Source: a virus
Taxonomy: Duplodnaviria > Heunggongvirae > Uroviricota > Caudoviricetes
Direction: 5' to 3' (one strand)
IMG/VR virus record: IMGVR_UViG_3300017649_000004
DNA: 64,000 nucleotides
Part shown: one piece after another, positions 10,313 to 60,097 of the stretch
Layout: each line of letters begins with the position of its first letter
Numbering within the stretch: the first letter of the stretch is position 1
The notes under the pieces: model-generated
Told to the model about the DNA's origin: nothing
What the model saw: the letters and a program-made list of their open reading frames with translations, nothing else
Database searches by the model: none
Program-made: the position numbers and the translations under genes

Positions 10313-10852
10313 GTGGCTGAATATCCTATCAAAGTCACTGCCCAATCGTTCAACCATTCGGGCGGGACGAAATCATACCACCTCATGCTGATCCGAACGG
10401 TGACTGGTAAATGCGTCATCGTTCGCCGGTGGGGCAGAGTCGGCCAGTTCGGCCAGCTGAAGGCCGAGCACTACAACACCGTCTCGTCGGCAATGGAGGC
10501 TTTTGAAAGCCTGATCGATGAGCGCCGGCGCAAGGGCTACTCCGCAGCTGGCCTGTCGGTCGAGCGCGAGGCCAAGACGCAAAACGATCTGGTCTCGGCA
10601 ATCACCCTGCCGGTGTTCTCCAAGCTTGGCCCCAAGACCATCAACCACCTCGACCCGACCTACGACACCTCGCGTATGCACGAGCCTGACGAGCCGACGC
10701 TCGATGAGGACACCTTGCGCAAGGTTCGTCAGCCGACGGCGCGCGGCATCTCCCAGGAAGAATACGAGGAAATGGTGCGCCGGCAGGAGGCAGAGCGGCT
10801 CGCGGTCGAGCGCAACCACTACGAATCCATCCCTGAATTTGGAATGTTCTGA
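10313..10852 (+). CDS. hypothetical protein with C-terminal ...IPEFGMF tail
   Basis: 179 aa with a GTG start. It ends with the shared NPxFGMF-stop motif, and its TGA overlaps the next ATG. Confidence 0.5.
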   Translation: MAEYPIKVTAQSFNHSGGTKSYHLMLIRTVTGKCVIVRRWGRVGQFGQLKAEHYNTVSSAMEAFESLIDERRRKGYSAAGLSVEREAKTQNDLVSAITLPVFSKLGPKTINHLDPTYDTSRMHEPDEPTLDEDTLRKVRQPTARGISQEEYEEMVRRQEAERLAVERNHYESIPEFGMF

Positions 10853-11409
10853 TGCGCCACTACCTGACCCTATCGAAAGCGAACCAGTTCAAGTTCGTCT
10901 GCCCGATCTTCGGCGCCGAGACCCGTTTCAGCGCCTGCGCGAAGCTGCGCGATATTGTCTATGTCGGCGGCCGCCCGCCAGTGCGCAAAGGCTGCCAGGC
11001 GTGCATCGCCTCCAGCAAGTGTCCGGCTGCGGAAGTCATTCGTCGCATCAGCTTTGGCGGCGGCGTTGCGCCTGACGATCACTGCTCCGAGACGCCGACT
11101 GTCGGCAAGCTGCGCCGTGACGTGCTTGAGCGGATCGCTCCGGTCGTCGTGCTTGAGGCGACCATGAGCAAGTATGGCGTGCCCGATGGCGAGCGCGCGC
11201 TCATTAACAGTTCGCGTGAGCGCATCGAGAAGGCGATCGCGACGGCTCCGAAGGGCGAGTTCGATTACAACTACTCGCGTCCGACGACGACCACGCGCTC
11301 TGCATCGAAGTCGACTGCGAAGGCTGCCAAGCCTGCGCCGAAATCCAGCAACGACAACATCAACCAGGCAGCTGCGACCGGCGACCTTGCTGCTGCTGTG
11401 TCTCTGTAG
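10852..11409 (+). CDS. hypothetical Cys-rich protein with C-terminal AAATGDLAAA tail
   Basis: 185 aa. It has multiple Cys residues near the N-terminus. Its C-terminus 'NQAAATGDLAAAVSL' is shared with the 30553-30903 ORF. Confidence 0.5.
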   Translation: MRHYLTLSKANQFKFVCPIFGAETRFSACAKLRDIVYVGGRPPVRKGCQACIASSKCPAAEVIRRISFGGGVAPDDHCSETPTVGKLRRDVLERIAPVVVLEATMSKYGVPDGERALINSSRERIEKAIATAPKGEFDYNYSRPTTTTRSASKSTAKAAKPAPKSSNDNINQAAATGDLAAAVSL

Positions 11410-11411
11410 GA

Positions 11412-12851
11412 GTGACCATGAGCGCCTTCGACGTAATGATGCTCATTGACCAGATCGCGGCAACTTCGTCGCGATCGGAGAAGGAGCGTCTGACCTGCGA
11501 GCTTGCCAAGTTCGAGGTCGGGCGCTTCGCCCTCAAATGGGCATACGACCCCAACATCACCTATGGCATCAACGTGAAGGCGATGCCTGAAGGCAATGGC
11601 ATGGACATCGCCTTCACCACTCCGACGATCGAGCCGCTCTTGACGAAGCTCGCAACGCGACGGCTCGCCGGCAAGGCGGCCGAGCGCGAGGTCCATGAGG
11701 TTCTCGCCGCGCTCAACGACTATTCGCGCACCCTCCTGCTGCGCATCCTGATGAAAGACCTCAAGTGCGGCATTGCCGAGTCCACGATCAATCTGGCGAT
11801 GCCTGGCCTGATCCCGGTCTTCTCCGTGATGCGCGCGCAGAAGTTCGAGGAAAAGCGCCTCAAGACCTGGCCGCAGATCATCGAGCCGAAGCTCGACGGC
11901 TACCGGTTCACCTTCCTGTGCCGCGACGGCCACGGCGGCTTCTTCACGCGCTCGGGCAAACGTGCGCCGGCGGCCGATCACCTCGTTGAGCCGATGATCG
12001 CAACGGCGCTCGCCGCCCTGCAGGTGAGCCAGAACAACACGCTTCGGTCTACGCTCAGCACTCGTCCGGGCGATCTGACGCGCTATGCTCGCGATGATCT
12101 GAATTTCATGGTCGACGGCGAAATGATGATGCCGGGCGACTTCAATGAAACGGGCGCGCTCAGGCGCAAGGACGAGCAGGCGCTGGATGCGACGTTCCAC
12201 GTCTTCGACATCATGTCCTATGCCGACTTCAACGCACCGGGCAGCTTCGCCAAGCCCTATATGGAGCGGCGCAAGCTGGTCGAGGAGTTCGTCGCAAACG
12301 CTGTGAGCGACAAGATCACCAAGACGCCCCGCTACATCATCAACTCGGTCGATGAGGCCTACGAATACTACAACAAGTTCCGCGAGCGCGGGCTTGAAGG
12401 CGCAATGGTCAAGGATCCGAACGGCTTCTACGACAAGAAGAAGTCCTACTCCTGGCTCAAGATGAAGGCCGAGGAGAGCGAGGATCTTCCGATCGTCGGC
12501 GTCTTCCAGGGCGAGCCGATGACCAAGTATGAGCACTGTCTCGGCGGCATTATCGTTCGGCGCGAGAACGGCATGAACGTCAGCGTTGGTGGCGGTTTCA
12601 CCGACCAGCAGCGCGAGGAGCTTTGGGAGCTCTGGAAGGCTGACGCAAAGGAGCTGCGCATTTTGCCCGACTGCGGCCCCAAGGGCGTCTTCGTCCAGCC
12701 GACCGAGCCGCTGACCAACGGCAAGCTCATCGGCCGCCTCGCCGAGATCCGCTACCACGAGGAGACGCCTGACGGGTCGCTGCGTCATCCGCGCTTCCTG
12801 CGCTTCCGCGACGACAAGGCGGGCGAGCTCGAGGCGAACGAGGCAGCATGA
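11412..12851 (+). CDS. ATP-dependent DNA ligase
   Basis: Adenylation motif I 'IIEPKLDGYRF' (KxDG) and a ligase-like length of 479 aa. Confidence 0.8.
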   Translation: MTMSAFDVMMLIDQIAATSSRSEKERLTCELAKFEVGRFALKWAYDPNITYGINVKAMPEGNGMDIAFTTPTIEPLLTKLATRRLAGKAAEREVHEVLAALNDYSRTLLLRILMKDLKCGIAESTINLAMPGLIPVFSVMRAQKFEEKRLKTWPQIIEPKLDGYRFTFLCRDGHGGFFTRSGKRAPAADHLVEPMIATALAALQVSQNNTLRSTLSTRPGDLTRYARDDLNFMVDGEMMMPGDFNETGALRRKDEQALDATFHVFDIMSYADFNAPGSFAKPYMERRKLVEEFVANAVSDKITKTPRYIINSVDEAYEYYNKFRERGLEGAMVKDPNGFYDKKKSYSWLKMKAEESEDLPIVGVFQGEPMTKYEHCLGGIIVRRENGMNVSVGGGFTDQQREELWELWKADAKELRILPDCGPKGVFVQPTEPLTNGKLIGRLAEIRYHEETPDGSLRHPRFLRFRDDKAGELEANEAA

Positions 12852-13090
12852 AGTTCTTCCTCGTCATCTACATCGGCACTCAGGTGGCGGGTCTGATTGA
12901 CCCCTCTCCTGTCACGCGCAACGAATGCCTGCTTCGCGAGGCAAAGCTCAACCGTGAGCTACGCGAGCTGGTCAGCCTGATTACCGCGGTGGCCGCGCCT
13001 GGCAGACTGCCGAAGGACTTTCAGTCCATCCGCGTGGTCTGCGAGTATCGCAACAAGCGTCCGGCGATCACCTACGAGCGCAAACACTAG
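12848..13090 (+). CDS. hypothetical small protein
   Basis: 80 aa with a hydrophobic N-terminus, overlapping the ligase stop. Confidence 0.4.
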   Translation: MKFFLVIYIGTQVAGLIDPSPVTRNECLLREAKLNRELRELVSLITAVAAPGRLPKDFQSIRVVCEYRNKRPAITYERKH

Positions 13091-13091: not shown

Positions 13092-14216
13092 TCATTCGCG
13101 CCTGCGCTGCGCATAGCGGCGCAGTTCGCCCGCAAGATTGACCTTGCCCTCCCTGATCAGGCGCACCAATGCCCTGAAATAGCCGCCGGCGTTCTTGATC
13201 GGGTCCGATCCGGGCGTCGGCTGTGCCTGTAGCTGCACCACATAGACGAGCGTTGCCGCCGCGGGCAGGTGCCCAATTCGCTCGCAAGCTTCCTCCCAGC
13301 CCGACGGCGACACGCCAAATGCGCCTCTCATGCGCGCGGCGGCCGCAATCAACTCCCGATCCGAGCGCACTTCGCCGAAAAATTCCATTGCGTCAGGGCA
13401 AGTGTGGATCAAATCCGCGGCGTTCGCAGTTAGACTCGGCGGTTCGGCCCCACTAGTAGACTCATTGCCGTTGTTACAAGACTGGTCAGGGGCATATTTG
13501 TTATGGTCTTCATGACGGCCATTCTTGCCGCCACAGGCGGCATAATATCTTCCCTCGGCTTCCTCACGCAGCTGCTTCCACTCCGACCGGAACGGTTCAA
13601 CCGCGCATCCCTTGGCAGAGCGCCTGGGAGAGCGTCTGGCAAGCTCGAGGGCTCGCGCCGTCAGGTCGCTGATGTCTTCCTGCGGGAAATACTCGGCAAG
13701 CGCCCTGAGCGCTTCCTGAGCCGAACGGCGATGCACCGTCAGTTCATCGAAGGCCAGCTTCCACTCATGCTCGCGCTCGGCCTGCGCCTGCACCATCTGA
13801 CGCCACTCTTCCATGCGCGCGACGAGCGGGCCAAGGTCGAAGCCATAGGCACGAATGATCTGGCCCTGCCGTGAGCGCTGGGCAAACCGCTTGCCGTTCG
13901 GGCTGTCCTTGGTGGTGATGACGCCAAGCTCGATCAGCCGGCGAATGGCGTAGCGGATCGTGCGCTCGGGAACGCCCGTGCGCTCCACCAGGTATTCGTT
14001 CGACGGCCAGACGAGCATCCGGCCCTCAATCAGTTCACCGCCATAGACGGCGCAAAGCTGGTCGAGAATGTAGCGGCAGCCGGTATTCAGGCTGAGCGCC
14101 TTGGCGCACAGACGCGCCGCCTCAAAAAGATCCTGTTTGTCGGCTGAACTCGGCTCGACTGGTAACGGCGCAAGCGCCGCCATCGAGCGCCAACCGGTAT
14201 GTTGCGCTTTCCTCAT
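13092..14216 (-). CDS. repC: RepC-like plasmid replication initiator
   Basis: The N-terminal region 'LDQLCAVYGGELIEGRMLVWPSNEYLVERTGVPERTIRYAIRRLIELGVITTKDSPNGKRFA...AYGFDLGPL' resembles the repABC RepC N-terminal domain (the DSPNGKRYA motif). The gene is on the minus strand in an otherwise plus-strand genome. Confidence 0.6.
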   Translation of the reverse strand: MRKAQHTGWRSMAALAPLPVEPSSADKQDLFEAARLCAKALSLNTGCRYILDQLCAVYGGELIEGRMLVWPSNEYLVERTGVPERTIRYAIRRLIELGVITTKDSPNGKRFAQRSRQGQIIRAYGFDLGPLVARMEEWRQMVQAQAEREHEWKLAFDELTVHRRSAQEALRALAEYFPQEDISDLTARALELARRSPRRSAKGCAVEPFRSEWKQLREEAEGRYYAACGGKNGRHEDHNKYAPDQSCNNGNESTSGAEPPSLTANAADLIHTCPDAMEFFGEVRSDRELIAAAARMRGAFGVSPSGWEEACERIGHLPAAATLVYVVQLQAQPTPGSDPIKNAGGYFRALVRLIREGKVNLAGELRRYAQRRRE

Positions 14217-14406: not shown

Positions 14407-14676
14407 CTACATCCTTCTTCCTTCCAAGAATGCGTTCACTGCCTGCGCGACCAGCTCAGACCGGTTCTTAAAGCCACCCTGCGCTACAAACTGGTCCATG
14501 TCGCTGCGGAGTTTTTCGTTAAGCCAGACCACGATCTGTGCCTCTCCTGCTGCCTCACGGTTAAGCCGATACCTCTGTGCGGGGTTAAGTGCTCTGGTGT
14601 CCTTCGTCATAGTTCCGAATCCGAAAATCAGATCGCTCGCTAGTGATGCCCGATTCCCTCGAAAGTCGATAGCCAC
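14407..14676 (-). CDS. ribbon-helix-helix (CopG/Arc-like) transcriptional regulator
   Basis: 89 aa with a GTG start. 'IVVWLNEKLRSDMDQFVAQGGFKNRSELVAQAVNAFLEG' fits the RHH beta-alpha-alpha pattern (...NRSE..A...). Confidence 0.55.
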   Translation of the reverse strand: MAIDFRGNRASLASDLIFGFGTMTKDTRALNPAQRYRLNREAAGEAQIVVWLNEKLRSDMDQFVAQGGFKNRSELVAQAVNAFLEGRRM

Positions 14677-14870: not shown

Positions 14871-15377
14871 ATGAGCGAAGCACAGGGGCGCCCCGAGAAA
14901 GACAACGAAATCGGCCGGTTCATCGAAGGACGGATGAGTCAGCTTGGCCTCACACAGCGTGAGGTTGCGGATATCGTCGGCTTTAAGAACCGCAATATGC
15001 TCTCATTCATCAAGAACGGCGACGGCAAGCTCCCACTTGAGCGCGTTGCCGGCATGGCGCGCGCGCTTAAAGTTCCAGCTTCCGAGTTGTTCGAGATGGC
15101 GCTTAGACAGCACTACTCGTCGGACACCATTGAGCTGATGAAGCAGGCGCTCACAGAGGCGTCCCTTTCAAGAGACGAGGCAGAACTCCTGGACCTGTTT
15201 CGGGTTCATGTGCCGCGCGGCAAGTTTACAGCCGACGCCCTGCGCCGGATAGCCGACGAGATGGAAAAGACTGGCAAAGACCAGGCGGTCGAAGCGGCTC
15301 GTAAGCAACTCGCCGAGGCGGCAAGGTTCGGCCGCAGGGCCGTGCCGAATGAGGAGATCGAACCCGAAGAAAGCTGA
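14871..15377 (+). CDS. HTH XRE-family (Cro/CI-type) transcriptional regulator
   Basis: 'MSQLGLTQREVADIVGFKNRNMLSFIKNGDGKLPLERVAGMARALKVPASELFEM' is a canonical XRE helix-turn-helix. It is transcribed divergently from the RHH gene. Confidence 0.7.
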   Translation: MSEAQGRPEKDNEIGRFIEGRMSQLGLTQREVADIVGFKNRNMLSFIKNGDGKLPLERVAGMARALKVPASELFEMALRQHYSSDTIELMKQALTEASLSRDEAELLDLFRVHVPRGKFTADALRRIADEMEKTGKDQAVEAARKQLAEAARFGRRAVPNEEIEPEES

Positions 15378-15737: not shown

Positions 15738-18086
15738 ATGAACCGTGAAATCGTAGAGCTCCGCGAAGTCATCACGAAGCTGGTGCCGCTGCTGGCTGGT
15801 CGTGGCCTCAAGGTCACGCAGCGTGGCAGCCAGGCTTACGTGAATGCTGATCCGGTCACGAAGAAGCCAGTGTCGGTCAACATTCCGAACATTTCGGACA
15901 ACGCATCGCCGGACTTCATCCGCGCGATCCAGGGCTTCATCGATCACGAAGTGGCTCATGTCCTCTACACGGACTGGAACCACTACTGCCGCGGTGCGTC
16001 TGCGGCAGATTTGAAGAAGCCGGAAGTGCAGCGCTTCATGAACACCCACAACATCGTGGAGGACACGATGATTGAGCGGCGCATGGTCGAGGACTTCCCC
16101 GGCTCAAGCCGCAATCTGTCGGACACGCGCCGCTACTTCCTTGAGCGCATCACCAAGAAGGCGCTCGAGACAGCCAAGAACGACAAGGAAGCGTTCATCT
16201 ACCTGCTCGTGCCGACCATGCGCGCGCTCGCTGGTCAGCAGGAGATGCAGGACTTCATGGATGACGGCGGCTACTGGAAGAACCCCTTCGTCAAGGGCGT
16301 GGTCGAAGGCTTGAAGCCTGACACCCTCCAGAAGCTCAAGAAGGCGCGCTCCACGATCGAGACGCTGGAGATTGCCGAAGAACTCCACGCAATTCTCTAT
16401 CCGCCGCAGCCTCCGGCACCACCCATGCCGTCGGCACCGTCCGACTGCGATGACGAGGGGCAGGACAGCGACAGCAGCTCCGGCAGCCCGAGCTCCTCGA
16501 AGAAGAGCAAGGACAAGCCCGAGAAGAAGGCTGACGAGGGTGATGGCGACGGTGAGCGCGATCACCAGGAGTCAGGCGAGGAGGGCACGTCCAAGGACAA
16601 GAAGGGCAAGAAGGACAAGTCGAAGAAGGACGACAAGTCCGACGAGGAGAAGGAGGAAGGCGCTGGCGACAAGGGCGATGACGAGGACGCCCGCGACGGC
16701 GAGGAAGACGAGGACGGCGAAGGCGGTGATGCCGGCGACGATGATGGCGAGTCTGACGCCGGTGACGAGGGCGAGGAGGAAGACGACGACAAGGGCAAAG
16801 ACAAGGGCTCTGACGGCGACGAGGAAGAAGGCGGAGACGACGAGGGCGAAGGCTCCGGCGGCGAAGGAGACGATGAGTCTGAGGACGCCGATGAAGGCGG
16901 CGATGATGAGAACGGTGAGGATGGCTCTGGAGCGCCCGGCAAGTCCGGCGACAAGGGCGGTGACTCCGACGAGGAAGGAAAGAAGAAGGCACCGGAAGTG
17001 ATCACCGAAGGTGCTGACGGTGGCGGCGTTGGTGAAATGAACGGCGACGACACCGAAAACTCTCCTGGTGGCGGCGTCAGCAACGACGAAGGTAAGAGCC
17101 TGTTCGACTTCGATGACGATGCCTTCGAAGAAGCGGACATGAGCAAGCAGATCGCGATCCTCATCTCCGACGAAGCCGTCGAAGCGATGGATCCTGCCGA
17201 ATACCTCGTCTACACGCGCGAGTTCGACCGGATCGAGCCCGTCAACGTGCCTGACAAGATGGATTCGACCTGGGTGCCGAAGATGGAAGAGGAAGTGCGT
17301 CTGACGAGCGGCCGCTTGCAGAAGGACATTGAGCGGATGCTCGCCTCGCAGTCGCACGTCATCCGCACGCCTGGTCACAAGAAGGGCAAGCTACATGCGC
17401 CTTCGCTCTATCGCGTGATGCAGGGCGATCCGCGCGTGTTCACGCAAAAGCAGGAGCATGTGTCGAAGGACACGGCAGTGACCCTTCTGTGCGACAACTC
17501 CGGCTCTATGGGCGGTGCCAAGATGAAGCTCGGCATGATTTCGTCCTACGCGCTGGCGGTCACGCTCGAACGGGTCAAGATCAGCTACGAAGTGCTCGGC
17601 TTCACCACCGGCAACTTCTCGCGCATTCCCAACTCGATCCTCGAAGCGATGCAGGACGAAGTGGCAAAGACCGGTCTGCGATACGATCGGATCGAGCCGA
17701 TCAACATGCCGATCTACAAGGACTTCGATGAGCGGCTCGATGCGCGCGTAAAGGCGAGGTTCGCTTACATGATGTTCGCGCAGCGCGGTCTGAACGGCAA
17801 CATCGACGGCGAGTCCCTCGAATATGCTGCCATGCGCCTGATGAAACGCCCTGAAAAGCGCAAGGTGATGATCGTGCTGTCTGATGGTCAGCCTGCCGGA
17901 TCCTGGCGCTCCGGGCCTCACCTCAAGACGGTGGTCGAGCGCCTCAACAAGACGGGCATCGAGACCGTCGGCATCGGCATCATGGATCGCTCCGTGGCGC
18001 GCTACTACGACAAGCATGTGGTCATCACCAAGCTCGACGACCTGCCGGGCAGCGTCATGGGCGAGTTGAAGCGCATTCTGACGTAA
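15738..18086 (+). CDS. cobT: CobT-like vWA-domain protein with a hyperacidic D/E/G-rich linker
   Basis: C-terminal vWA MIDAS motif 'LLCDNSGSMGG'. There is a ~250-aa acidic low-complexity tract in the middle. Partnered with the downstream CobS-like AAA+ gene. Confidence 0.75.
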   Translation: MNREIVELREVITKLVPLLAGRGLKVTQRGSQAYVNADPVTKKPVSVNIPNISDNASPDFIRAIQGFIDHEVAHVLYTDWNHYCRGASAADLKKPEVQRFMNTHNIVEDTMIERRMVEDFPGSSRNLSDTRRYFLERITKKALETAKNDKEAFIYLLVPTMRALAGQQEMQDFMDDGGYWKNPFVKGVVEGLKPDTLQKLKKARSTIETLEIAEELHAILYPPQPPAPPMPSAPSDCDDEGQDSDSSSGSPSSSKKSKDKPEKKADEGDGDGERDHQESGEEGTSKDKKGKKDKSKKDDKSDEEKEEGAGDKGDDEDARDGEEDEDGEGGDAGDDDGESDAGDEGEEEDDDKGKDKGSDGDEEEGGDDEGEGSGGEGDDESEDADEGGDDENGEDGSGAPGKSGDKGGDSDEEGKKKAPEVITEGADGGGVGEMNGDDTENSPGGGVSNDEGKSLFDFDDDAFEEADMSKQIAILISDEAVEAMDPAEYLVYTREFDRIEPVNVPDKMDSTWVPKMEEEVRLTSGRLQKDIERMLASQSHVIRTPGHKKGKLHAPSLYRVMQGDPRVFTQKQEHVSKDTAVTLLCDNSGSMGGAKMKLGMISSYALAVTLERVKISYEVLGFTTGNFSRIPNSILEAMQDEVAKTGLRYDRIEPINMPIYKDFDERLDARVKARFAYMMFAQRGLNGNIDGESLEYAAMRLMKRPEKRKVMIVLSDGQPAGSWRSGPHLKTVVERLNKTGIETVGIGIMDRSVARYYDKHVVITKLDDLPGSVMGELKRILT
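16440..17110 (+). repeat. GAC/GAG/GGC-rich low-complexity coding repeat (CobT acidic linker)
   Basis: Runs of gacgag/gaagac/ggcgat codons that produce long mirror ORFs on both strands. Confidence 0.6.
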
Positions 18087-18198
18087 GAAAATGTCAGTAT
18101 GGGCTTACTTTCCCTATAGACTCCCAAACTCGATGTAAGTAAGTTCTTCATTACTAGAGCGCAGACGCGAGCGCTTAGCACACAAGAGGGAATTTCAC

Positions 18199-19461
18199 AT
18201 GACGGACACTGCTCTCGTCGCCGACAACGCGTCGGCGGCCACCGCCACTGTTGCGACTCCTGATGACGGCAAGATCGTTTGCCAGCTCGATGGTGTTCGC
18301 TGCCACATCATTCAGACGCACCTGCGCGACCATCATCCGAACTACACGATCGAGGACTATATCCGCGATTATCCGGATGCTCCGCTCATGTCGCCGACGG
18401 CTCTGGCGATGAAGGAGAAGCGCGAGAAGGAGCTGGCTGCCAAGAAGGCGGCTCAGGCAGCGGCCGCACCAGCAGGTGCCCAGGCAGCGCTCGTCACTGA
18501 AAGCGTTGGCGCAGCTTCGCTCGTTGCCAAGAACGAGCTGTTCCATGAGGTCTTCGAACTCGGCAATGCGCCGGCGGCGATGAACTCGATGGGCAAGCCA
18601 ATCCCTTGCACCGTGTTCACCGGTCACGACCACCTCTCGCGCGACTATCTGGCAGAGGTCGATAAGGCCTATGTGTTCAACATCGACCTGCTCAAGAAGG
18701 TCATGGTGGGCTTGCAGCTCAACATTCCGATCTATCTGTGGGGTATGCACGGCACTGGTAAGACGACCGTGCTCGAACAGGCAGCTGCGCGCACTCGCCG
18801 GCCGTTCCTGCGCAACCAGCACACCATCAACATGCAAGAGTCCGACGTTCTCGGACAGTGGACCGTCAAGGATGGCTCCACGCAGTTCCAGCTCGGGCCG
18901 CTGCCGATGGCGATGATCCACGGCTGGGTCTACTGCGCCGACGAGTATGACTTTGCCATGCCGTCCGTGACCGCGCTCTACCAGCCGGTGCTCGAAGGCA
19001 AGCCGCTGCTGATCAAGGAAGCGCCGGCAGAGTTCCGCAAGATCGAGCCGCATCCGAACTTCCGCTTCTGCGCAACCGGCAACACGAATGGCGGCGGTGA
19101 CGAGACTGGCCTCTACCAAGGCACGCTGGTGCAGAACGCGGCGAACTACTCGCGCTTCGGCATCACCGAAGAAGTCAAATACATGGAGCCGGCGCTCGAG
19201 GAGAACGTGATTTGCGCCAAGACGCGGATCAGCAAGTCGGATGCTTCGAAGATCGTCCGGTTCGGCAACGACATTCGCAAGGCCTTCGGTGAAGGCAAGA
19301 TCAGCGCGACCGTCTCGCCGCGTGAGTTGATCTGCGCCGCTCGCCTGGGTGTCGCATTCGGCGGCAACTGGAAGATGGGCCTTGAACTTGCCTTCGGTAA
19401 CCGCCTCTCGCGCATCGATCGCAAGACCGTCGAGCAGTATCTCCAGCGGATCTTCCCGTAA
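18199..19461 (+). CDS. cobS: CobS/MoxR-like AAA+ ATPase
   Basis: Walker A 'LWGMHGTGKTTVLEQAA' and MoxR/CobS-type AAA+ organisation, sitting directly after the CobT-like gene. Confidence 0.75.
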   Translation: MTDTALVADNASAATATVATPDDGKIVCQLDGVRCHIIQTHLRDHHPNYTIEDYIRDYPDAPLMSPTALAMKEKREKELAAKKAAQAAAAPAGAQAALVTESVGAASLVAKNELFHEVFELGNAPAAMNSMGKPIPCTVFTGHDHLSRDYLAEVDKAYVFNIDLLKKVMVGLQLNIPIYLWGMHGTGKTTVLEQAAARTRRPFLRNQHTINMQESDVLGQWTVKDGSTQFQLGPLPMAMIHGWVYCADEYDFAMPSVTALYQPVLEGKPLLIKEAPAEFRKIEPHPNFRFCATGNTNGGGDETGLYQGTLVQNAANYSRFGITEEVKYMEPALEENVICAKTRISKSDASKIVRFGNDIRKAFGEGKISATVSPRELICAARLGVAFGGNWKMGLELAFGNRLSRIDRKTVEQYLQRIFP

Positions 19462-20831: not shown

Positions 20832-23800
20832 ATGCACTCCATCCTGGCTGCGCGCACCGACTTCTCTGTCGGCGAGGCCATCCTGACCGTCGAGCAACTG
20901 GTCAAGGCGGCCGTCGAGGCAGGTGAGAAGGTCGTCGCGCTTACCGACACCATGTCGATCACCGGCATGATCGACTTCACCAATCGCGCAAAGAAGGCCG
21001 AGCTGAAGCCGATCATCGGCACCAGGCTCAGGCTCACCGACAATCCGACCTGGCGGCCGACGGGCGACGAAAAGCGCAAGAACATGCCGCGCTCCTACTA
21101 TCTGACCGTCTATGCGCGCTCGGAAGCAGGAATGCAGGCGATCTACCGGCTGCTGACGCTCGCAAACAGTGAGGTGCGCTTCTACTACGAGGCAAAGCTC
21201 GGCTTCGAGGACTTCTATGAGGAGCTCGAAAAGGTCGGGCCTGACGAGCTTGCAATCGTGCTTGGCGACAGCCAGTCCGTCCTTGAGCATCCCGATTGCG
21301 AGACGATCACGCACAAGCTCGGTCAGCTCTGCTCGGCAGTCTTTGCGCCGCTGATCCCGATCCAGACGCCCTATTTCGGCCGCCTGAACCAGATCGCTGC
21401 CGAGCTTGTCACCAAGGAGCTCGCAAAGCCGATCGTCGTGCGTCCGGCTCTCTATGCCAAGGGCGAAGCCGACACCCAGGAAGTGATGACGGCGATCGCC
21501 GAGAACCAGAAGATCACCGATCCGTGGTTCTGTATGCGCTACAACCGCGACATGCACGTCATGGGCGTGCAGGAGCTGGTCGAGCACATCAAGGTCATGG
21601 CCGATCACCTGACGAAACGCGGCACGAGCATTGGCGCCATGTTCCGCGAGGGTCTGCTCAATACGCGCGTCCTTGCCGGCCTCATCGGCTACGAGTGGAA
21701 GAAGCAGCTGCCGTCCCTGCCGAAGATGGCGGATGACGAGTTCATGGCGGTGATGAAGGCGTGCAAGGAAGGCTGGGAGAAGCGCTTCAACGACAAGGTA
21801 TTCGGCCACCGTCCGGGCGACGAGGAGCTCGAGAAGGTCTACAAGCCGCGCCTTGCCTACGAGCTGTCGGTGCTCAAGAAGCTCAACTTCTCGGGCTACT
21901 TCCTGCTGGTGCAGGACGTGGTGCAGTTTGCGAAGTCGAACGGCATCATGGTGGGCCCGGGTCGTGGCTCCGTTGGTGGATCCCTCGTTGCCTATCTGAT
22001 GGGCATTACCGAGTGCGATCCGATCCGCTTTGGCCTTCTGTTCGAGCGCTTCATCAACCCGGAACGTATCGACCTGCCTGACGCCGACCTCGACTTCATG
22101 TCCGAGCGCCGGCACGAGGTGTTCGAATATCTGCTGCGCAAGTATGGCGCCGAGCGTGTGGCCGGCGTGTCGAATTTCGGCACTCTTGGTGCGCCGTCCG
22201 CCATTCGCGACGTCGGCCGCACGACCGGCATTCCTGAGCGTGAATATTCGGTTTCGAAATACGTGCCGAAGGTTCACGGCCAGACGGTCGAGTTGAACAA
22301 GGCGCGCGAGGAAGTCCCGGAGATTGACCAGTTCGCGCAGAAATATCCGTTCCAGTGGAAGATCATGGAGCGGCTCGAAGGCACGATCCGCAACTTCAGC
22401 CAGCACGCCGCCGGTGTCGTGGTTGCCGGCTGCGATCTGGTCGAGCGCGCGGTGCTTGAAAAGCGCAAGGACGGCTATGTCGTGTGCTGGGACAAGCGCA
22501 TCGTTGAGGAGCAGGGCCTGATCAAGATGGACGTCCTGGGGCTCAACACCCTCGACGTCATCAAGCTTGCCCTCGACTATATCCGCGAGCGCACGGGCAA
22601 GGAGCCCGATCTCATGCGCATTCCGCTTGACGACCATGAGGTGCTGCAAAACTTCGCCAAGGCGAACACGACCGGCATCTTCCAGTTCGAGTCTGGCGGT
22701 ATGCGCCGTCTGCTCAAGGAGCTCGGCGCCGACGGCACGATCACCTTCGACGACATCACCGCGGCCACCGCGCTGTTCCGTCCTGGTCCGATCGAGTCCG
22801 GCATGATGGACTCCTACTATCTGCGCAAGCAGGGCAATGAGCGCGTCGATTACGACCACCCGCTTCTGGAGCCGATCCTGAAAGAGACGTTCGGCGTCAT
22901 CGTCTACCAGGAGCAGGTCATGAAGATTTCGCAGGTCATCTGCGGCTACTCCGGTGCCGACGCTGACAAGCTGCGCAAGATCATGGGCAAGAAGCTGCCG
23001 GAGGAGATGCGCAAGGAGAAGGTGAAGTTCGTTGACGGCGCAGTCAAGACGATTGGCTGCGACAGGGACTGGGCAGAAGCGCTGTTCGATAAGATCGAAG
23101 GCTTTGCCTCCTACGGCTTCAATAAGTCGCATTCCGTAGAATACACGCTCATCTCCTATCAGGCCATGTGGCTCAAGACCTACCATTCGGTCGAGTTCTA
23201 CGCGGCTGCGCTGTCGCTGCTGAAAGAGGACAAGCTGCCGGGCCTGATCCGTGACGCAAAGATGCTTGGCATCGACGTCTCGATGCCCGACATCAACATT
23301 TCGACCGACCGGTTCGAGATTGCCACCGACGTGCGCCTGGTCATTCCGCTACAGCGCATCAAGGGCCTGTCCGAGCGCGCAACGCAGGAAATCATCAATG
23401 CGCGCAAGGCCGGCGGTCCCTTCAAGGACAAGGCCGACTTCGTGTCGCGTGTCGCGCGGCGCATCGTCAACGCAAGGGTGCAGGACGCGCTTGATCGTGT
23501 GGGTGCATTTGCGCGCATCGAGCCCGGTCAGTTGCCGGCGAACGATCCGAGCCGCGTGAAGGACCAGATCGAACTTATCCCGGGTCTGATTGCCGCGCAT
23601 GTGCCGATCAATCGCGAAATGCACCGCGACAAGCTGACGAAGGAAGCGATTGGCGAGGTCATCTACGAGTATCGCGCCAATCATGGTCCCGGCAGCGGCC
23701 AGGCAGACGGAGTGCCGGTCAAGCCCTCCTTCGGCAAGGAAGCCGAGTTCGTGATCATCTCCGACGCGCCGAACGGTGAAGAGGAGCAGGTGGGCATGAT

Positions 23801-24191
23801 GGGCTGGTCGCAGTCGAATGGTGCCGTCATTGAAGCGATGGCGGAGGTCAGCTTGCAGCGCGAGCACGCCTACTGGACCTCGCTGATCAAGCGGCCGAAG
23901 CGCGGCAAGCAGGTCACGCCCGAAGAGGTCGCGACTTACCTTCCCTACCTCAAGCGTGAGCTTGAGATCCTCGAGCCGCCGATCATCGTGCTGCTCGGCT
24001 CTCAGACGGTGCGCACCTTCATTCCGGACTTCAAGGGCAAGGCCTCTGACAGTGCCGGCAAGGTCGTCTACTCGAAGGAATATGACGCCAATCTCGTCAT
24101 CGGCTTCTCGCCCGGTGAGATTTGGCATGACCCCGACAAGCAGCAGAACATGAATGAGGTGTTCGCTGCGGTTGCAACTCTGCTCGCATAG
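20832..24191 (+). CDS. dnaE: DNA polymerase III alpha subunit (DnaE-type, with N-terminal PHP domain)
   Basis: 1119 aa. 'GFNKSHSVEYTLISYQAMWLKTYHSVEFYAAALS' matches the DnaE palm/fingers signature. The N-terminal region is PHP-like. Confidence 0.85.
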   Translation: MHSILAARTDFSVGEAILTVEQLVKAAVEAGEKVVALTDTMSITGMIDFTNRAKKAELKPIIGTRLRLTDNPTWRPTGDEKRKNMPRSYYLTVYARSEAGMQAIYRLLTLANSEVRFYYEAKLGFEDFYEELEKVGPDELAIVLGDSQSVLEHPDCETITHKLGQLCSAVFAPLIPIQTPYFGRLNQIAAELVTKELAKPIVVRPALYAKGEADTQEVMTAIAENQKITDPWFCMRYNRDMHVMGVQELVEHIKVMADHLTKRGTSIGAMFREGLLNTRVLAGLIGYEWKKQLPSLPKMADDEFMAVMKACKEGWEKRFNDKVFGHRPGDEELEKVYKPRLAYELSVLKKLNFSGYFLLVQDVVQFAKSNGIMVGPGRGSVGGSLVAYLMGITECDPIRFGLLFERFINPERIDLPDADLDFMSERRHEVFEYLLRKYGAERVAGVSNFGTLGAPSAIRDVGRTTGIPEREYSVSKYVPKVHGQTVELNKAREEVPEIDQFAQKYPFQWKIMERLEGTIRNFSQHAAGVVVAGCDLVERAVLEKRKDGYVVCWDKRIVEEQGLIKMDVLGLNTLDVIKLALDYIRERTGKEPDLMRIPLDDHEVLQNFAKANTTGIFQFESGGMRRLLKELGADGTITFDDITAATALFRPGPIESGMMDSYYLRKQGNERVDYDHPLLEPILKETFGVIVYQEQVMKISQVICGYSGADADKLRKIMGKKLPEEMRKEKVKFVDGAVKTIGCDRDWAEALFDKIEGFASYGFNKSHSVEYTLISYQAMWLKTYHSVEFYAAALSLLKEDKLPGLIRDAKMLGIDVSMPDINISTDRFEIATDVRLVIPLQRIKGLSERATQEIINARKAGGPFKDKADFVSRVARRIVNARVQDALDRVGAFARIEPGQLPANDPSRVKDQIELIPGLIAAHVPINREMHRDKLTKEAIGEVIYEYRANHGPGSGQADGVPVKPSFGKEAEFVIISDAPNGEEEQVGMMGWSQSNGAVIEAMAEVSLQREHAYWTSLIKRPKRGKQVTPEEVATYLPYLKRELEILEPPIIVLLGSQTVRTFIPDFKGKASDSAGKVVYSKEYDANLVIGFSPGEIWHDPDKQQNMNEVFAAVATLLA

Positions 24192-24199: not shown

Positions 24200-24751
24200 A
24201 TGACCGACACGACCGCGGATCCCGTGAAAGAACCGACCACCTTTCAGGTGCGCGAGTTCATCGACGCCAAGAAGCTGAAGGAAGACCTGGCCTTCAATGA
24301 CCAGGACTTGACGACGGCGATGATGCAGCAGTCCTCGCTGTTCTCCTACTACGGCGTGCTGGCGGCCGAGGCTGCGCGCCAGGTGGATGTGGTCAAGCTC
24401 CTGCTCGAGAACACCGAGGCGGCGATCTACCAGCTCGAACGCAACAAGGCGGCAACCGCCGGCGAGAAGCTGACGGAGGCGATGCTTGAGAAGCGGGTAG
24501 CGCGCAACTCCCGGGTCATCGGCATGAAGAAGGCGCTCAACGAGGCAAAGCGCATCGAAGCGATCGGCAAGACGGCCGTCGAAGCCTTCCGCCACCGCCG
24601 CGACATGCTGGTGCAGATGGGCCTCATTTCGCGTGAGGAGATGAAGGGCGAGCTGCGGATCCAGGAGAAGAATATCCGCGAGAGCGCCTACGAATATCAG
24701 AAGGATTCGGTCCTCGAGCGGATGGGTCGCAAGCCTTCTGAGGACGCATAA
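24200..24751 (+). CDS. hypothetical protein
   Basis: 183 aa, predicted helical or coiled-coil. Confidence 0.5.
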   Translation: MTDTTADPVKEPTTFQVREFIDAKKLKEDLAFNDQDLTTAMMQQSSLFSYYGVLAAEAARQVDVVKLLLENTEAAIYQLERNKAATAGEKLTEAMLEKRVARNSRVIGMKKALNEAKRIEAIGKTAVEAFRHRRDMLVQMGLISREEMKGELRIQEKNIRESAYEYQKDSVLERMGRKPSEDA

Positions 24752-27327: not shown

Positions 27328-27335
27328 GAGTATCC

Positions 27336-30496: not shown

Positions 30497-30552
30497 CGAT
30501 CGCCAATCGCAGCAATGTTATTGTGAGAGAACAATAACTTAGAAGGTCGCTC

Positions 30553-30903: not shown

Positions 30904-30907
30904 CCGG

Positions 30908-51906: not shown

Positions 51907-51964
51907 AACCTGCCGCAGTCCAACTGCGCGCTCGCTATAGATAAAACGCAATAAATTCAATACG

Positions 51965-52366
51965 TTGAGCGAAAGAACCGCTTCAACGAGGAGGGAAGCT
52001 TTGCCCGAATTTCAGAAGTTCGCGCGCGCGGTGAAGGCGCGCTTTGATCAGATGTCCAAGCATGAGCTTTACGTGGTGGACGTCGACGACCTCTTCGACA
52101 AGTATCTGGCCGCCTTCCCGGAAGGCACCAATCCCATCTACCGCGTGCGCACCTATCACGACGGCTCCTACGACAAGCACTTCATCCGTGCCGTGGGTAA
52201 TGTAGTGTCGATCGCCGACGGTAAGGTTTCCACGCTGTGGGATCTGAAGGGACTGCCTTACCCGTATGACGTCGTTGCCAAGCGCCTCGACCTGGAGGAA
52301 GATGACGGCGGGCCTTGCCTCTGGATTAAGGCAAGAAACGCCTATCCCGGCACCCGCGGGCAGTAG
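51965..52366 (+). CDS. hypothetical protein
   Basis: ORF with a non-ATG start. TTG at 52001 with RBS GGAGGG is an alternative start. Confidence 0.4.
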   Translation: MSERTASTRREALPEFQKFARAVKARFDQMSKHELYVVDVDDLFDKYLAAFPEGTNPIYRVRTYHDGSYDKHFIRAVGNVVSIADGKVSTLWDLKGLPYPYDVVAKRLDLEEDDGGPCLWIKARNAYPGTRGQ

Positions 52367-54037: not shown

Positions 54038-54094
54038 AAGTTATTACAACACTGTGATGCTAGCGGTGAACAAGACAACGTGCCAGAGGGATGA

Positions 54095-54325
54095 GTTGCG
54101 CCCAGATCGCTTGCGCTGGCGAGGGAGAAGGCCGACGCGATCCGCGAGAAGCTGGCGCGGGGAGAAGACCCGAGAGCAGAAAAGAAGCCGGCCCGCATCG
54201 TCACCTTCGCCGACTGCATGATCGACTTCCACCGGCACTTTGCGGCGTCTCGCGAGAGGGCGCTCGCCCGGCTTGAGGAGATCAGGCGGCAGATGCAGGA
54301 GGAGGAAGAGGACGAAGCCGCGTAA
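54095..54325 (+). pseudogene. tyrosine-integrase N-terminal fragment (remnant)
   Basis: A start-less frame translates to '...AREKADAIREKLARGEDPRAEKKPARIVTFADCMIDFHRHF...', resembling the integrase arm-linker region ('ARERRDEARKLLAEGIDPSEARKAEK...TFGEVAEEW' type). No catalytic domain follows. Confidence 0.35.
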
Positions 54326-54337
54326 CTTCCTCACGCA

Positions 54338-54383
54338 GCCCAAATATGTGCGCGCTATACAGTAAGTATCAGCTTACTTACGG
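54338..54383 (+). promoter_or_regulatory. full promoter/5'-hairpin element
   Basis: GCCCA - N10 - CGCTATACAGTAAGTA - tcagct - TACTTAC. Confidence 0.5.
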
Positions 54384-54394
54384 AGTGTAACACG

Positions 54395-54523
54395 ATGAAG
54401 GATCCGCTCGAGCCGCACATCAACCAGGACGGCACCGCGTTCAATGGCAACCACGCCGTGATCGCGGTGTCCGCCCTGATCGCAGTTCTCGCCGGTATCG
54501 GCGCAATCGTCAGCTTGTTCTGA
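54395..54523 (+). CDS. small TM peptide
   Basis: 42 aa, 'MKDPLEPHINQDGTAFNGNHAVIAVSALIAVLAGIGAIVSLF'. Preceded by a full promoter/hairpin element. Confidence 0.35.
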   Translation: MKDPLEPHINQDGTAFNGNHAVIAVSALIAVLAGIGAIVSLF

Positions 54524-54535
54524 CAGGAGGTCAAA

Positions 54536-54652
54536 TGGGTCTGCTGACCGTCATCGGAGGCCTGGTAGTCGCCGGTCTCATCGTTCTCGGCGCTTACACC
54601 GCCGCAAATCGCATCACCAATTCCAGCCCGAAGCGCAGAAAGGGAAACTAGG
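54536..54652 (+). CDS. small TM peptide
   Basis: 38 aa, 'MGLLTVIGGLVVAGLIVLGAYTAANRITNSSPKRRKGN'. RBS CAGGAGG. Confidence 0.35.
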
Positions 54653-58087: not shown

Positions 58088-58290
58088 AAGTCCTCTACCA
58101 GAAGCTCAAGCAGGTCGCCGACAAGGAGGAGCGCCCCTACAAGGTGGGAATCGAGGTTGTGACCGGCTCATACCTTGAGGGCCAGGTCGTTGCGGCCGAC
58201 AGCTACCACCTGCATCTGATCAGCGATGACTACCACTGGTTCCTCAATTGGGATCACATCGTGGGGCTGACGATCAAATGGACGGCCTGA
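58084..58290 (+). CDS. hypothetical small protein
   Basis: 68 aa, ATGA overlap. Confidence 0.4.
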   Translation: MKVLYQKLKQVADKEERPYKVGIEVVTGSYLEGQVVAADSYHLHLISDDYHWFLNWDHIVGLTIKWTA

Positions 58291-58712
58291 CGATCACCGG
58301 AGGCGACGAGCAGCTCCACGAGGTCTTGAAAGCGATCCTCGGCGGCAATCGGCGCAGTGCCCGTGTTAGCGGATACAGTCCCGATGGCTGTTGGATCGAC
58401 GAATACACGACGACCCTGCGGCCGATGCCAAAGGTCTACGCGACCTTCACCGACGAGCGTGTGCCCGACGTGATGGTCCAGATCGTGGACGGCAACATCG
58501 AGCATCCCCGGTTCAAGCCTGTGAAGAGCCGGAAGGGCGAAACCCTGCGATTTCAGACGCCCTACCAGGTCAAGGTGAACGAGAAGGTGCTGCCCAAGGT
58601 CTACATGACACTGCGGGGAGCATCGAACAACGCCAAGACGATCCTTCGGGAACACGTCGAGGCATACATCAGGGAGAACATCGCCAACAATCCGACCTTC
58701 GGAATGTTCTGA
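58278..58712 (+). CDS. hypothetical protein with C-terminal ...NPTFGMF tail
   Basis: 144 aa from ATG at 58278. Ends 'IANNPTFGMF'. Confidence 0.5.
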   Translation: MDGLTITGGDEQLHEVLKAILGGNRRSARVSGYSPDGCWIDEYTTTLRPMPKVYATFTDERVPDVMVQIVDGNIEHPRFKPVKSRKGETLRFQTPYQVKVNEKVLPKVYMTLRGASNNAKTILREHVEAYIRENIANNPTFGMF

Positions 58713-58991: not shown

Positions 58992-59236
58992 GCACCAACA
59001 AGCGCCGTCGCGAAATCATGGCTTTCGCGAAAACCCTTTGTCCTGACGCTCGTATGGAAATGTCAGGCGACAACCATCTGCGCGTCATCTTTACCGGGCC
59101 GCTCGGGACCAGGAAGGTTCACCTGTCCCTGACCCCATCGGACCATCGTGACGCCAAGAACAGCCGACGCGACATGCTCCGCGCTGCGCGCACCGTCGGT
59201 CTCATCCCCGCGAACGACTCCAGAAAGGAGGGCTGA
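58988..59236 (+). CDS. hypothetical small protein
   Basis: 82 aa, ATGA overlap. Confidence 0.4.
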   Translation: MSTNKRRREIMAFAKTLCPDARMEMSGDNHLRVIFTGPLGTRKVHLSLTPSDHRDAKNSRRDMLRAARTVGLIPANDSRKEG

Positions 59237-59237
59237 C

Positions 59238-59786
59238 ATGAAGAAGGTCGTTCAGGAGGCACGCAAATTTGCCAAGGCACATCACAAGGAACAGCGGCGT
59301 CCCTACACGGGACGCCCTTACGTCGAGCATCTGAAGGGTGTCGCTGGCATCGTAAGCAAGGTTCCAGGTGCAACGCCGCAGATGATCGCTGCGGCCTGGC
59401 TGCACGATGTGGTGGAGGACACGCCCGTCGATTTCGATGAGGTCTACTCACGCTTCGGTTATGAGGTGGGCGAGCTTGTCGATGCCCTGACCAACTACAC
59501 GAACAAGGACCGGCAGAACGCCTTCGAGCTGAATTGCATCCGGCTCGAAATGTCACCGGCGGCCGCACAGACCATCAAGTGCGCCGACATCCTGCACAAC
59601 GTCTCCGACATCATCGCTGTCGCGCCACGGGGTAAAGCGCTGTCTTACGTCGGCGAGAAGCTGTCGGTTCTTTCCAGGCTCAACTCCGCGGATCCCGATC
59701 TGCGCGCAAGGGCGATCGAGGCCTGTCTTGCCGTCCAGCTCGAGGACGCGCTCGAGGAGCCGGCAGCAATGAGGATGGCCGCATGA
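59238..59786 (+). CDS. small alarmone hydrolase, RelA/SpoT-type HD domain ((p)ppGpp hydrolase-like)
   Basis: 'AHHKEQRRPYTGRPYVEHLKGVAGIV...AAWLHDVVEDTPVDFDEV...FGYEVGELVDALT' matches the SpoT/Mesh1 HD signature HxxxxR...PY..H...LHDxxEDT...FG.eV..LVd. Single-domain, 182 aa. Confidence 0.7.
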   Translation: MKKVVQEARKFAKAHHKEQRRPYTGRPYVEHLKGVAGIVSKVPGATPQMIAAAWLHDVVEDTPVDFDEVYSRFGYEVGELVDALTNYTNKDRQNAFELNCIRLEMSPAAAQTIKCADILHNVSDIIAVAPRGKALSYVGEKLSVLSRLNSADPDLRARAIEACLAVQLEDALEEPAAMRMAA

Positions 59787-60097
59787 CGTTCCGCACCTCA
59801 GTCGCCTGCTTCGACATGAACGACCCGCTGAGCAAGTGCATCGCCGAATACTCCGCCATGATGCGCGGCGCCGGCCCAGGCACGGAGCTCTGCACCCAGT
59901 TGCGCGACCAGATGATGAACGATCCGCTGGTCGTCGCCAACGCCGAGGAGCTGCTCCAGATGATCCCGCGCAACGGCGATCAGGTCGACATAATCATGCG
60001 CGTTGCCTGCAAGCGCGTTCTTGCCCGCACCGCTGCTCAAGAGAAGAAGCAATCCCTCGCGCACCTTCAGACGAACCCGCTGTTCGGAATGTTCTGA
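59783..60097 (+). CDS. hypothetical protein with C-terminal ...NPLFGMF tail
   Basis: 104 aa. Ends 'LQTNPLFGMF'. Confidence 0.5.
   Translation: MTFRTSVACFDMNDPLSKCIAEYSAMMRGAGPGTELCTQLRDQMMNDPLVVANAEELLQMIPRNGDQVDIIMRVACKRVLARTAAQEKKQSLAHLQTNPLFGMF

Follow-up and report, generated by a model that had tools for sequence, protein, structure and literature searches.

Why should several unrelated small proteins of one virus finish in the same few residues, written in the same nucleotides? The window analysed here is the 64,000-nucleotide stretch of the IMG/VR virus record IMGVR_UViG_3300017649_000004 (Caudoviricetes), which, judged from its genes, is a Rhizobium-phage-like phage-plasmid. A sequence-only reading of this window had pointed to four proteins that end in FGMF and are encoded there by an identical 15-nt sequence, and our search bears this out: TTYGGAATGTTCTGA has four exact matches, all on the plus strand and ending at positions 10852, 33906, 58712 and 60097, against a chance expectation of 0 (no match in 100 shuffles). 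The proteins concerned end in ..SIPEFGMF (open reading frame (ORF) 10313-10852), ..DNPEFGMF (33427-33906), ..NNPTFGMF (58278-58712) and ..TNPLFGMF (59783-60097), and translation also upholds the fifth tail gene reported then, ORF 33906-34217, with its ending ..LIPGYGAF. Five ORFs of the window thus carry a terminal [N/I]-P-x-[F/Y]-G-[M/A]-F where 0.013 terminal cases would be expected (binomial P ~3e-12), an expectation derived from three internal occurrences of [FYW]GxF in the 82-gene window set. When the last 10 residues are trimmed, the tail families of the window remain unconnected by BLAST at E<1e-3, and the earlier statement that they share no other similarity holds at that threshold; across families there is only one weak match (E=4e-4), in which the helix-plus-tail end of 59783-60097 aligns with that of the orthologue of 33427-33906 in Rhizobium phage RHph_X66 (X66 below). 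An artefact of annotation or frameshifting is excluded by independent gene calls and by the existence of orthologues for all four FGMF families. The metagenome gene call for the 82.5-kb contig containing the window yields the same 144-aa (58278-58712) and 104-aa (59783-60097) proteins; for the former, the third FGMF protein, the longest ORF begins at a TTG at 58248 and the start called by the pipeline is the ATG at 58278.

Is the tail maintained in relatives of this element? Megablast with two segments of the window found no close DNA relative in the phage collection, and relatives were reached at the protein level only, via the DnaE polymerase. The window polymerase is 72% identical to those of the Rhizobium phages RHph_X66, V1VFA-S and B1VFA, 63% identical to that of RHEph10, and 36-44% identical to those of Stenotrophomonas phage BUCTxx99, Pseudomonas Nickievirus and the SSU5-like phage-plasmids of E. 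coli and Klebsiella; RHph_X66 and RHEph10 are syntenic with the window in gene order and possess ParA, ParB and RepC. Orthologues of all four FGMF families, at 30-45% identity, retain the tail, and synonymous codons and the residue at -2 (counting back from the C-terminus) differ among them; synonymous variation is what a comparison with related phages had been proposed to look for. The WGR-domain protein 10313-10852, whose family has the tail in 13 of 13 members, ends in ..IPEFGMF in the window, ..NELYGRF in X66 and ..NPRFGMF in RHEph10; the corresponding endings in the 33427 family are ..NPEFGMF, ..NELFGAF and ..NPNFGRF. In the 58278 family, ..NPTFGMF becomes ..HPAFGGF in X66 (108817-109479), ..NPMFGRF in RHEph10 (78415-78966) and ..NPKFGMF on contig L011. 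For the 59783 family (..NPLFGMF) X66 has ..LSTFGAF (111263-111805), none was found in RHEph10, and further orthologues lie on contigs L029 and L038. Across these relatives the glycine is encoded by GGA, GGG, GGC or GGT, the phenylalanine by TTY and the stop by TGA, TAA or TAG. Tails number five in the window, six in RHph_X66 and seven in RHEph10, with an expectation of at most ~0.03 in each.

The 33427 family gives the most detailed view of the motif. Word-indexed protein searches with 33427-33906 and with the WGR protein returned only near-identical sequences; an exhaustive HMMER search with the former yielded relatives amounting to 100 representatives at 50% identity, nearly all of which end in Y-x-x-[N/H]-P-x-[F/W/Y]-G-x-F. 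Among 83 aligned diverse members, position -7 is N in 64% and H in 18%, -6 is P in 86%, -5 varies among L, N, E, D, M and others with no preference for Gln, -4 is F in 72%, W in 13% and Y in 12%, -3 is G in 100%, -2 is R in 45%, M in 28%, A in 11%, L in 7% and K in 5%, and -1 is F in 99%. Since the tail is retained while codons and the -2 residue change in orthologues, selection acts at the level of the protein. Comparative evidence thus identifies the tail as a protein-level C-terminal short linear motif (SLiM): it is short, lies outside the globular domain, is retained while its flanks diverge, and recurs on unrelated proteins beyond chance.

How far does the motif extend? Trimming the last 10 residues from the tail proteins of all loaded loci left about 39 groups unconnected by BLAST, at least 30 of them bona fide, among which are WGR, two BRCT and serine-recombinase proteins. 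Scanned for NPxFGMF-TGA, 2.9 M viral contigs yielded 13 matches, 11 of them real ORFs; ten fall within the clade, and one (L014) lies on an unplaced 7.9-kb contig. The same scan of 185,579 genomes gave 31 matches, of which nine are real ORFs and the rest chance short ORFs; all nine are alphaproteobacterial (Paracoccus, Sphingomonas, Novosphingobium, Gemmobacter, Celeribacter and others), and four of them are serine recombinases with ..KNPxFGMF behind a Pro/Glu-rich linker. These recombinases, which have a Resolvase N-terminal domain, are found on the Rhodobacterales contigs L061 (2504-3280, minus strand), L071 (1230-2132), L085 (6922-7998) and L087; those of L071 and L085 neighbour an XRE-like gene homologous to window 14871-15377, and that of L061 neighbours HipA and a nucleotidyltransferase-binding protein.

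In more distant relatives the terminal aromatic residue is often tryptophan. Stenotrophomonas phage BUCTxx99 encodes 11-13 small proteins ending in ..[E/N]-x-Y-G-x-W, with D, G, T, V, E or R at -2. Ten of their genes, small, mutually unrelated and all YGxW-ending, stand in tandem on the minus strand (L051, 27312-30074), directly downstream of a classical AAA ATPase (30078-31523) and a cell-wall hydrolase; two of the products are BRCT proteins, and one BUCTxx99 tail protein resembles a cytidine deaminase (HAEQ..PCDAC; judged from sequence, with no domain scan). The E. coli SSU5-like element CMS-2020a has two tails only, ..ISWGSW and ..ENPIWGTW, which occupy the slots between primase and ligase and between SbcC and RuvC, that is, the slots held in the window by the WGR protein and by 33427/33906; the families of these E. 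coli proteins, phrog_4248 and phrog_2117, carry the PHROG annotation 'unknown function'. In Pseudomonas ZY21 the same slots show ..GWGAFG, ..DFGGWA and ..EIGGWS, with one extra residue. A scan for ENPxWGxW-TAA returned 38 viral matches, all 38 real ORFs, in three families (two post-SbcC, one post-primase); WGxW tails occur in E. coli and Klebsiella SSU5-like elements, and SSU5-like gene order was seen in the nine ENPxWGxW contigs checked for synteny. On comparative grounds the general motif is [N/H]-P-x-aromatic-G-x-aromatic, at or one residue from the C-terminus, and ancient in this supergroup. Every bona fide match of the whole-collection scans lies inside the supergroup or on a short contig that cannot be placed in another phage or plasmid group, and the same scans did not find the motif in unrelated phages of the same hosts. 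Literature searches on shared phage C-terminal motifs, SSU5 replication modules and RHEph10 found no description of an aromatic-G-x-aromatic tail, and a survey of prokaryotic SLiMs has no entry for it.

When unrelated proteins carry one motif, this points to a receptor that they have in common, be it for docking or for degradation. We propose, with a probability of roughly 0.55, that the aromatic-G-x-aromatic tail is an address tag that tethers unrelated proteins to one common receptor pocket. The motif, [N/H/I]-P-x-aromatic-G-x-aromatic-COOH in general and FGMF in this phage, would cap a helix or linker in each of these proteins, with the two aromatic side chains and the obligatory glycine serving as anchor residues, position -2 left free, and N-P forming a turn. 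Two core clients would occupy fixed slots, after primase and after SbcC, and the remaining clients would be accessory and lineage-variable, several of them with modules for DNA lesions or DNA structure (WGR, BRCT, serine recombinase). We infer docking on a single receptor and, further, that the phage-plasmid itself encodes this receptor as part of its conserved replication and recombination core. An element-encoded receptor is favoured because real matches stay in the supergroup or on unplaceable contigs and because the terminal aromatic residue switches with lineage. Candidates would be the gp32-like SSB, the DnaE-UDG polymerase, RecA, the CobT(VWA)/CobS(AAA+) pair and the ParB-like proteins.

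The kind of device that we propose is already known, namely the C-terminal SLiM that binds a hub; this particular motif appears undescribed. Its closest precedents are the epitopes of T4 gp43, gp55 and gp33 and the tails of T7 gp2.5 and gp4. In T4, gp43, gp55 and gp33 carry closely similar short hydrophobic C-terminal epitopes behind divergent flexible linkers, interchangeable and directed at one hub, gp45 (PMC2988020). As in the phage-plasmids, the clients are unrelated phage proteins (a polymerase, a sigma-like factor and a co-activator) with a common C-terminal epitope; unlike the phage-plasmid motif, the T4 tails are hydrophobic plus acidic and lack N-P..aromatic-G-x-aromatic, and their receptor is a known clamp encoded beside its loader. 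The phage-plasmid system further differs from that of T4 in that polymerase and sigma factor have no tail, no clamp has been recognised, and far more families are tagged. In T7, the single-stranded DNA-binding protein gp2.5 and the helicase-primase gp4 both dock on T7 DNA polymerase through C-terminal tails with an essential terminal Phe. Here too unrelated replication proteins share a tail with a terminal aromatic residue, but the T7 tails are strongly acidic, whereas the phage-plasmid tail is non-acidic, with an obligatory Gly and a second aromatic residue at -4. The SSB tip (..DDDIPF) and the beta-clamp motif are likewise short terminal-Phe peptides that organise DNA-metabolism interactomes around a hub; SSB, with one tail and many receptors, has a topology the reverse of the one proposed here, and the defining Gln and the Leu/Met at position 4 of the clamp motif are not conserved in the phage-plasmid tail.

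Several observations weigh against the docking model or narrow it. None of the candidates examined emerged as a receptor. Clade restriction may mirror inheritance and not the location of the receptor, and tail counts are non-independent because the loci are related by descent and patterns requiring TGATG served to retrieve some of them. BUCTxx99 lacks the tail in both 'core' slots. The AlphaFold2 (AF2) model of 33427-33906, with a predicted local distance difference test score (pLDDT) of 95, comprises a helix, a small six-stranded barrel, further helices, a 33-residue terminal helix and the 7-residue tail; the pLDDT of the tail itself, ~83, could mean that it packs in cis. Nor do the nucleotides fit without remainder: the GGA codons at 58701-58703 and 60086-60088 belong to tails with no coupled gene, so that the ribosome-binding account of this codon given below leaves out the tails ending at 58712 and 60097, and coupling is about twice as frequent among tail genes (11/18) as in the background (25/80, P~0.009), an excess that leaves room for a co-translational or RNA-level contribution. 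As to cis docking, mutual information with average product correction (MI/APC) on 83 sequences shows no covariation between tail and body, and this explanation was rejected. A fold search with the body of 33427-33906 gave no informative structural neighbour.

Why, then, are the nucleotides identical as well? Codon usage in the window is 84% TTC for Phe, 45% TGA for stops, and 69% GGC with only 6% GGA for Gly, yet GGA stands in all five window tails (P~8e-7). Among 47 non-redundant tails of the clade, Gly is encoded by GGA in 23, GGG in 12, GGC in 9 and GGT in 3, and the choice is associated with translational coupling, defined as a downstream start that overlaps or abuts the stop of the tail gene: coupled tail genes have GGR in 30 cases and GGY in 4, uncoupled ones GGR in 5 and GGY in 8 (Fisher p=0.0012). 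The GGR, often within GGAG, GGGAG or GGAA, lies 8-9 nt before the next start; in 10313-10852 the GGA is 8 nt upstream of the overlapping ATG. Stop and next start overlap as TGATG or TAATG at 10852, 33906 and 34217, the first two as noticed earlier and the last an additional case with TAATG. Because GGR correlates with a coupled downstream gene, the tail codon probably doubles as a Shine-Dalgarno element for that gene. The identical DNA would then be a by-product of Met having a single codon, of TTC and TGA being common, and of the rare GGA being favoured as a ribosome-binding site. A function of the DNA or RNA, which the sequence-only reading had left open, therefore survives in the narrow sense of a probable ribosome-binding site, the identity otherwise reducing to one rare Gly codon. 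The broader proposal, that the tail is in essence a nucleic-acid or translation-level element (a signal at gene boundaries, a joint for recombination in module shuffling, or a nascent peptide with a tuning effect on termination and on re-initiation at the overlapping next gene), draws on the uniform GGA, on its link to coupling and on the excess of coupled tail genes, but we consider it very improbable: the amino-acid motif survives codon differences and the replacement of Phe by Trp or Tyr, it is kept in the 13 of 47 tails that are uncoupled, and a need for a Shine-Dalgarno sequence cannot account for two aromatic residues or for N-P. Flanking synonymous sites differ among the four window copies (AAT/AAC, CCT/CCG, TTT/TTC), which disfavours recent copying, and module shuffling of that kind, also suggested before, is not supported.

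Could the tail instead mark its carriers for degradation, or address them to a host protein or to the capsid? Non-polar and aromatic C-termini are classical bacterial degradation signals (the Parsell/Sauer C-terminal determinants, the ssrA tag), and a C-degron would give the tail proteins, many of which are small and accessory, a shared and timed turnover through a phage protease or one of the AAA+ proteases of the host (Lon, ClpXP/ClpAP or FtsH). The same genomes hold a second conserved tail, -AA-COOH, of ssrA/ClpX-like appearance, and X66 and RHEph10 encode an HslV-like peptidase. Even so, we judge a degron unlikely, if still a serious rival. The motif is a long one with set positions (N/H-P, aromatic, invariant G, aromatic), which is more than mere non-polarity. 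Host proteases are highly conserved, yet the last residue is F in some lineages and W in others. Neither the HslV-like peptidase nor the phage AAA ATPases occur in the tail-bearing BUCTxx99, CMS-2020a and ZY21, and two tail proteins sit in core replication and recombination slots. We also think it improbable that the tail hijacks host machinery by docking on a hub conserved in the host, such as the beta sliding clamp, host SSB, RNA polymerase or a chaperone. Clamp-binding pentapeptides reportedly include QLGLF of Pol II and QADMF of alpha, which the x-F-G-M-F of the window superficially resembles; the element has a DnaE-type polymerase and no recognisable clamp among the scanned ORFs, and host take-over typically involves small, diversified early proteins encoded in arrays. 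Yet where the clamp motif (QL[SD]LF or QLxLxL) has Gln at position 1, the window tails have E, E, T, L and G at -5, and where it has Leu/Met at position 4, the FGMF tails of the window have Met, but across the family Arg is the commonest residue and A, K, S, G, T and D occur as well; it is the last residue, aromatic or hydrophobic in a flexible end, that agrees, being F (W in the gamma-proteobacterial lineages) after a helix or linker. The polymerase has a separate, canonical-looking QIELIPGL, the tails lack an SSB-like acidic run, and the absence of the motif, in the whole-collection scans, from unrelated phages of the same hosts also speaks against a host hub. A virion- or capsid-targeting peptide, an analogue of encapsulin cargo or of T4 capsid targeting that loads proteins into the head for co-injection, we hold to be extremely improbable. 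Encapsulin cargo proteins of unrelated function do share a common short C-terminal peptide, behind a linker, that binds an HK97-fold shell, and on entry the element could profit from several tail proteins, which bind DNA or may act in counter-defence. The encapsulin peptides have another consensus, however, the tail is on none of the structural-module proteins (scaffold, protease or others) of X66 or BUCTxx99, and the operons that hold tail genes are those of replication, recombination and accessory functions, with two of the genes in the primase and SbcC slots.

Returning to docking on an element-encoded receptor, the core kept in all lineages consists of PhoH, the 6988-7719 family, DnaB (7801-9123), primase (9123-10232), ligase, CobT (15738-18086) and CobS (18199-19461), DnaE-UDG, the 24200-24751 family, the gp32-like SSB, 5'-3' exonuclease, RecA (27336-28442), SbcCD, RuvC, RNR, epsilon-like exonuclease and the band-7 protein, all of which remain receptor candidates by virtue of their presence throughout; a ParB-like pair and a UvsW-like helicase are annotated in X66, RHEph10, BUCTxx99 and ZY21. 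A check for motif mimicry found no conserved internal copy of the motif in the core proteins. Candidates discarded as general receptors on grounds of distribution are the HslV-like peptidase of X66 and RHEph10 (absent from the tail-bearing BUCTxx99, CMS-2020a and ZY21), the AAA ATPase of X66 and the one adjoining the BUCTxx99 array (not conserved among tail-bearing lineages), and rIIA/rIIB (absent from BUCTxx99 and CMS-2020a).

Nor does the tail fall into other known classes. No acidic run of the SSB/T7 type precedes the terminal Phe in the five window tails, which end in G-x-F and not in an ssrA-like (L)AA-COOH; the penultimate residue is M, A or R instead of the Tyr of HbYX/HslU-type tails, and an invariant Gly at -3 takes the place of the hydrophobic residue of the class II PDZ ligand/OMP signature. 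T4-type clamp wiring is not seen, as the DnaE-UDG polymerase ends in ..VATLLA and the sigma-like factor in ..TRKFA, and no clamp or loader family was detected among the 30 window ORFs scanned against Pfam and PHROGs, the other window ORFs lying outside that scan. A common docking partner, as had been suggested for the four proteins, is in keeping with a conserved linear motif on unrelated proteins; the particular partners named then are not supported, and the positions that would define a clamp motif or an SSB-type tail are not those of this motif.

What might such a system be for? We speculate, in a tentative extension that we regard as possible and not as the likelier outcome, that a 'tail code' operates in SSU5-like and Rhizobium-type phage-plasmids, in which aromatic-G-x-aromatic, TGDLAAAI and -AA endings organise replication, recombination and accessory proteins. 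The aromatic tail would plug up to a dozen interchangeable clients (WGR or BRCT sensors of nicks or lesions, a resolvase, probable counter-defence factors) into an element-encoded hub that acts as a sliding clamp or RPA analogue in a DnaE replisome without a recognisable clamp. The replisomes of T4, T7 and bacteria are wired through docking peptides that the C-termini of their proteins share, and the tail marks at least 30 families of unknown function in widespread phage-plasmids, including the SSU5-like elements of Enterobacteriaceae known for resistance genes. It could place many 'hypothetical' proteins in one pathway and supply a simple sequence rule for their annotation. A peptide of 7-12 residues is also a direct experimental handle, which could identify the hub of such a replisome, and a Gly codon that probably doubles as a ribosome-binding site would be a case of overlapping protein and translation signals.

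The five tail genes of the window are all on the plus strand. In the primase-X-ligase slot, 10313-10852 encodes the 179-aa WGR-domain protein (Pfam WGR E=1.2e-12, and translation); its tail IPEFGMF is encoded by 10829-10849 and followed by the TGA at 10850-10852, whose A is shared with the ATG of 10852-11409. The SbcC-X-RuvC slot holds two tail genes, 33427-33906 for a 159-aa protein (NPEFGMF, 33883-33903), whose stop overlaps the start of 33906-34217, which encodes a 103-aa protein (IPGYGAF, 34194-34214); the TAA of the latter overlaps the ATG of the RuvC-like gene 34217-34795, and BLAST with the trimmed protein across the loaded loci found no orthologue of it. On the related contig L010 this slot has three tail genes in a row. 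Without a coupled downstream gene stand 58278-58712, encoding a 144-aa protein in the accessory region (NPTFGMF, 58689-58709), and 59783-60097, encoding a 104-aa protein downstream of an HD-domain hydrolase (NPLFGMF, 60074-60094). The nucleotide core GGAATGTTCTGA lies at 10841-10852 on the plus strand and is repeated at 33895-33906, 58701-58712 and 60086-60097.

Other C-termini are shared within the window as well. An -AA-COOH ending is found on 11 of the 82 window genes, against 1.07 expected (P~1e-8); these genes end at 5023, 12851, 27327, 28442, 34795, 39867, 41703, 44274, 48740, 59786 and 63935, and include those for ligase, 5'-3' exonuclease, RecA, the RuvC-like protein, ThyX, rIIA, the epsilon-like exonuclease and the HD hydrolase. 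The ending is kept in the X66 and RHEph10 orthologues; the ligase, 5'-3' exonuclease and RecA of BUCTxx99 lack it. It may serve as a degron of the ssrA/ClpX kind or as a further tag for docking. A third motif, (A)A-x-TGDL[A/T]AA[I/V/L] followed by 2-6 residues and the stop, recurs on otherwise dissimilar proteins: in the window on 10852-11409, the gene after that of the WGR protein, and 30553-30903, between SbcD and SbcC; in X66 on 54093-54650, 76035-76367, 76367-76675 and 26781-27476, a set that includes a head-module protein; and in RHEph10 on 30895-31470 and 51910-52260. The RNR small subunit (34891-35856, ..APDEDDF) and glutaredoxin (37744-37980, ..MPDDDF) have in common an acidic, Phe-ending tail, kept in RHEph10 as ..DDEF and ..GDDDF, which suggests that both dock on the RNR large subunit at the same site. 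Such docking of the small-subunit tail would follow, inside the same window, the logic that we propose for the aromatic tail; it differs in its motif, in having a known receptor class (R1) and in its two clients. The gp32-like SSB (25215-26261) consists of a core, an Ala/Pro-rich low-complexity linker of ~100 residues and a conserved acidic/hydrophobic tip, which reads ..DADAILRELEGLG in the window, ..LAELDNLV in X66 and ..DDIDDFLGEL in BUCTxx99. Such an end resembles the C-terminus of T4 gp32, which would make the SSB itself a tail-bearing hub.

The window has a GC content of ~0.60 and nearly every gene on the plus strand. It encodes tail fibre, PhoH, DnaB-like helicase, primase, ATP-dependent ligase, a RepC-like protein (minus strand), CobT(VWA)- and CobS(MoxR AAA+)-like proteins, a sigma-like factor, a fusion of DnaE polymerase with a UDG-superfamily domain, gp32-like SSB, 5'-3' exonuclease, RecA, SbcCD, a RuvC-like resolvase, RNR, glutaredoxin, rIIA/rIIB, epsilon-like exonuclease and a band-7 protein. 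The polymerase (20832-24191) lacks the usual C-terminal OB/tau-binding region and has a Pfam UDG domain at residues 968-1101, whose family-4-like motifs look altered (SDAPNGEEE, with no clear HPS motif); the fusion is kept in the Stenotrophomonas, Pseudomonas and E. coli relatives. Its internal QIELIPGL, which follows the HhH domain, resembles a clamp-binding hexapeptide. The CobT-like (VWA) and CobS-like (MoxR AAA+) pair, at 15738-19461, lies just upstream of the sigma-like factor and DnaE and is kept in all four lineages. A PDB sequence search with three conserved core proteins gave no significant match, the only one being 6988-7719 against a family-4 UDG at a non-significant E=0.64. Within the replication module, the RepC-like protein (13092-14216, minus strand) is 61-63% identical to those of X66 and RHEph10, and a CopG-like gene (14407-14676) likewise lies on the minus strand, opposite to the other genes; both are consistent with a phage-plasmid lifestyle. 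Finally, a protein of ~410-430 aa ending in ..GRQQTPLFGAF occurs on unrelated 27-43-kb viral contigs (L032, 1325-2617; L044, 5629-6849; also L020 and L033). Its C-terminal sequence looks, by eye and with no domain search, like that of a terminase large subunit, and its ending could be a chance resemblance or a similar tail in use, for example in docking on the portal.

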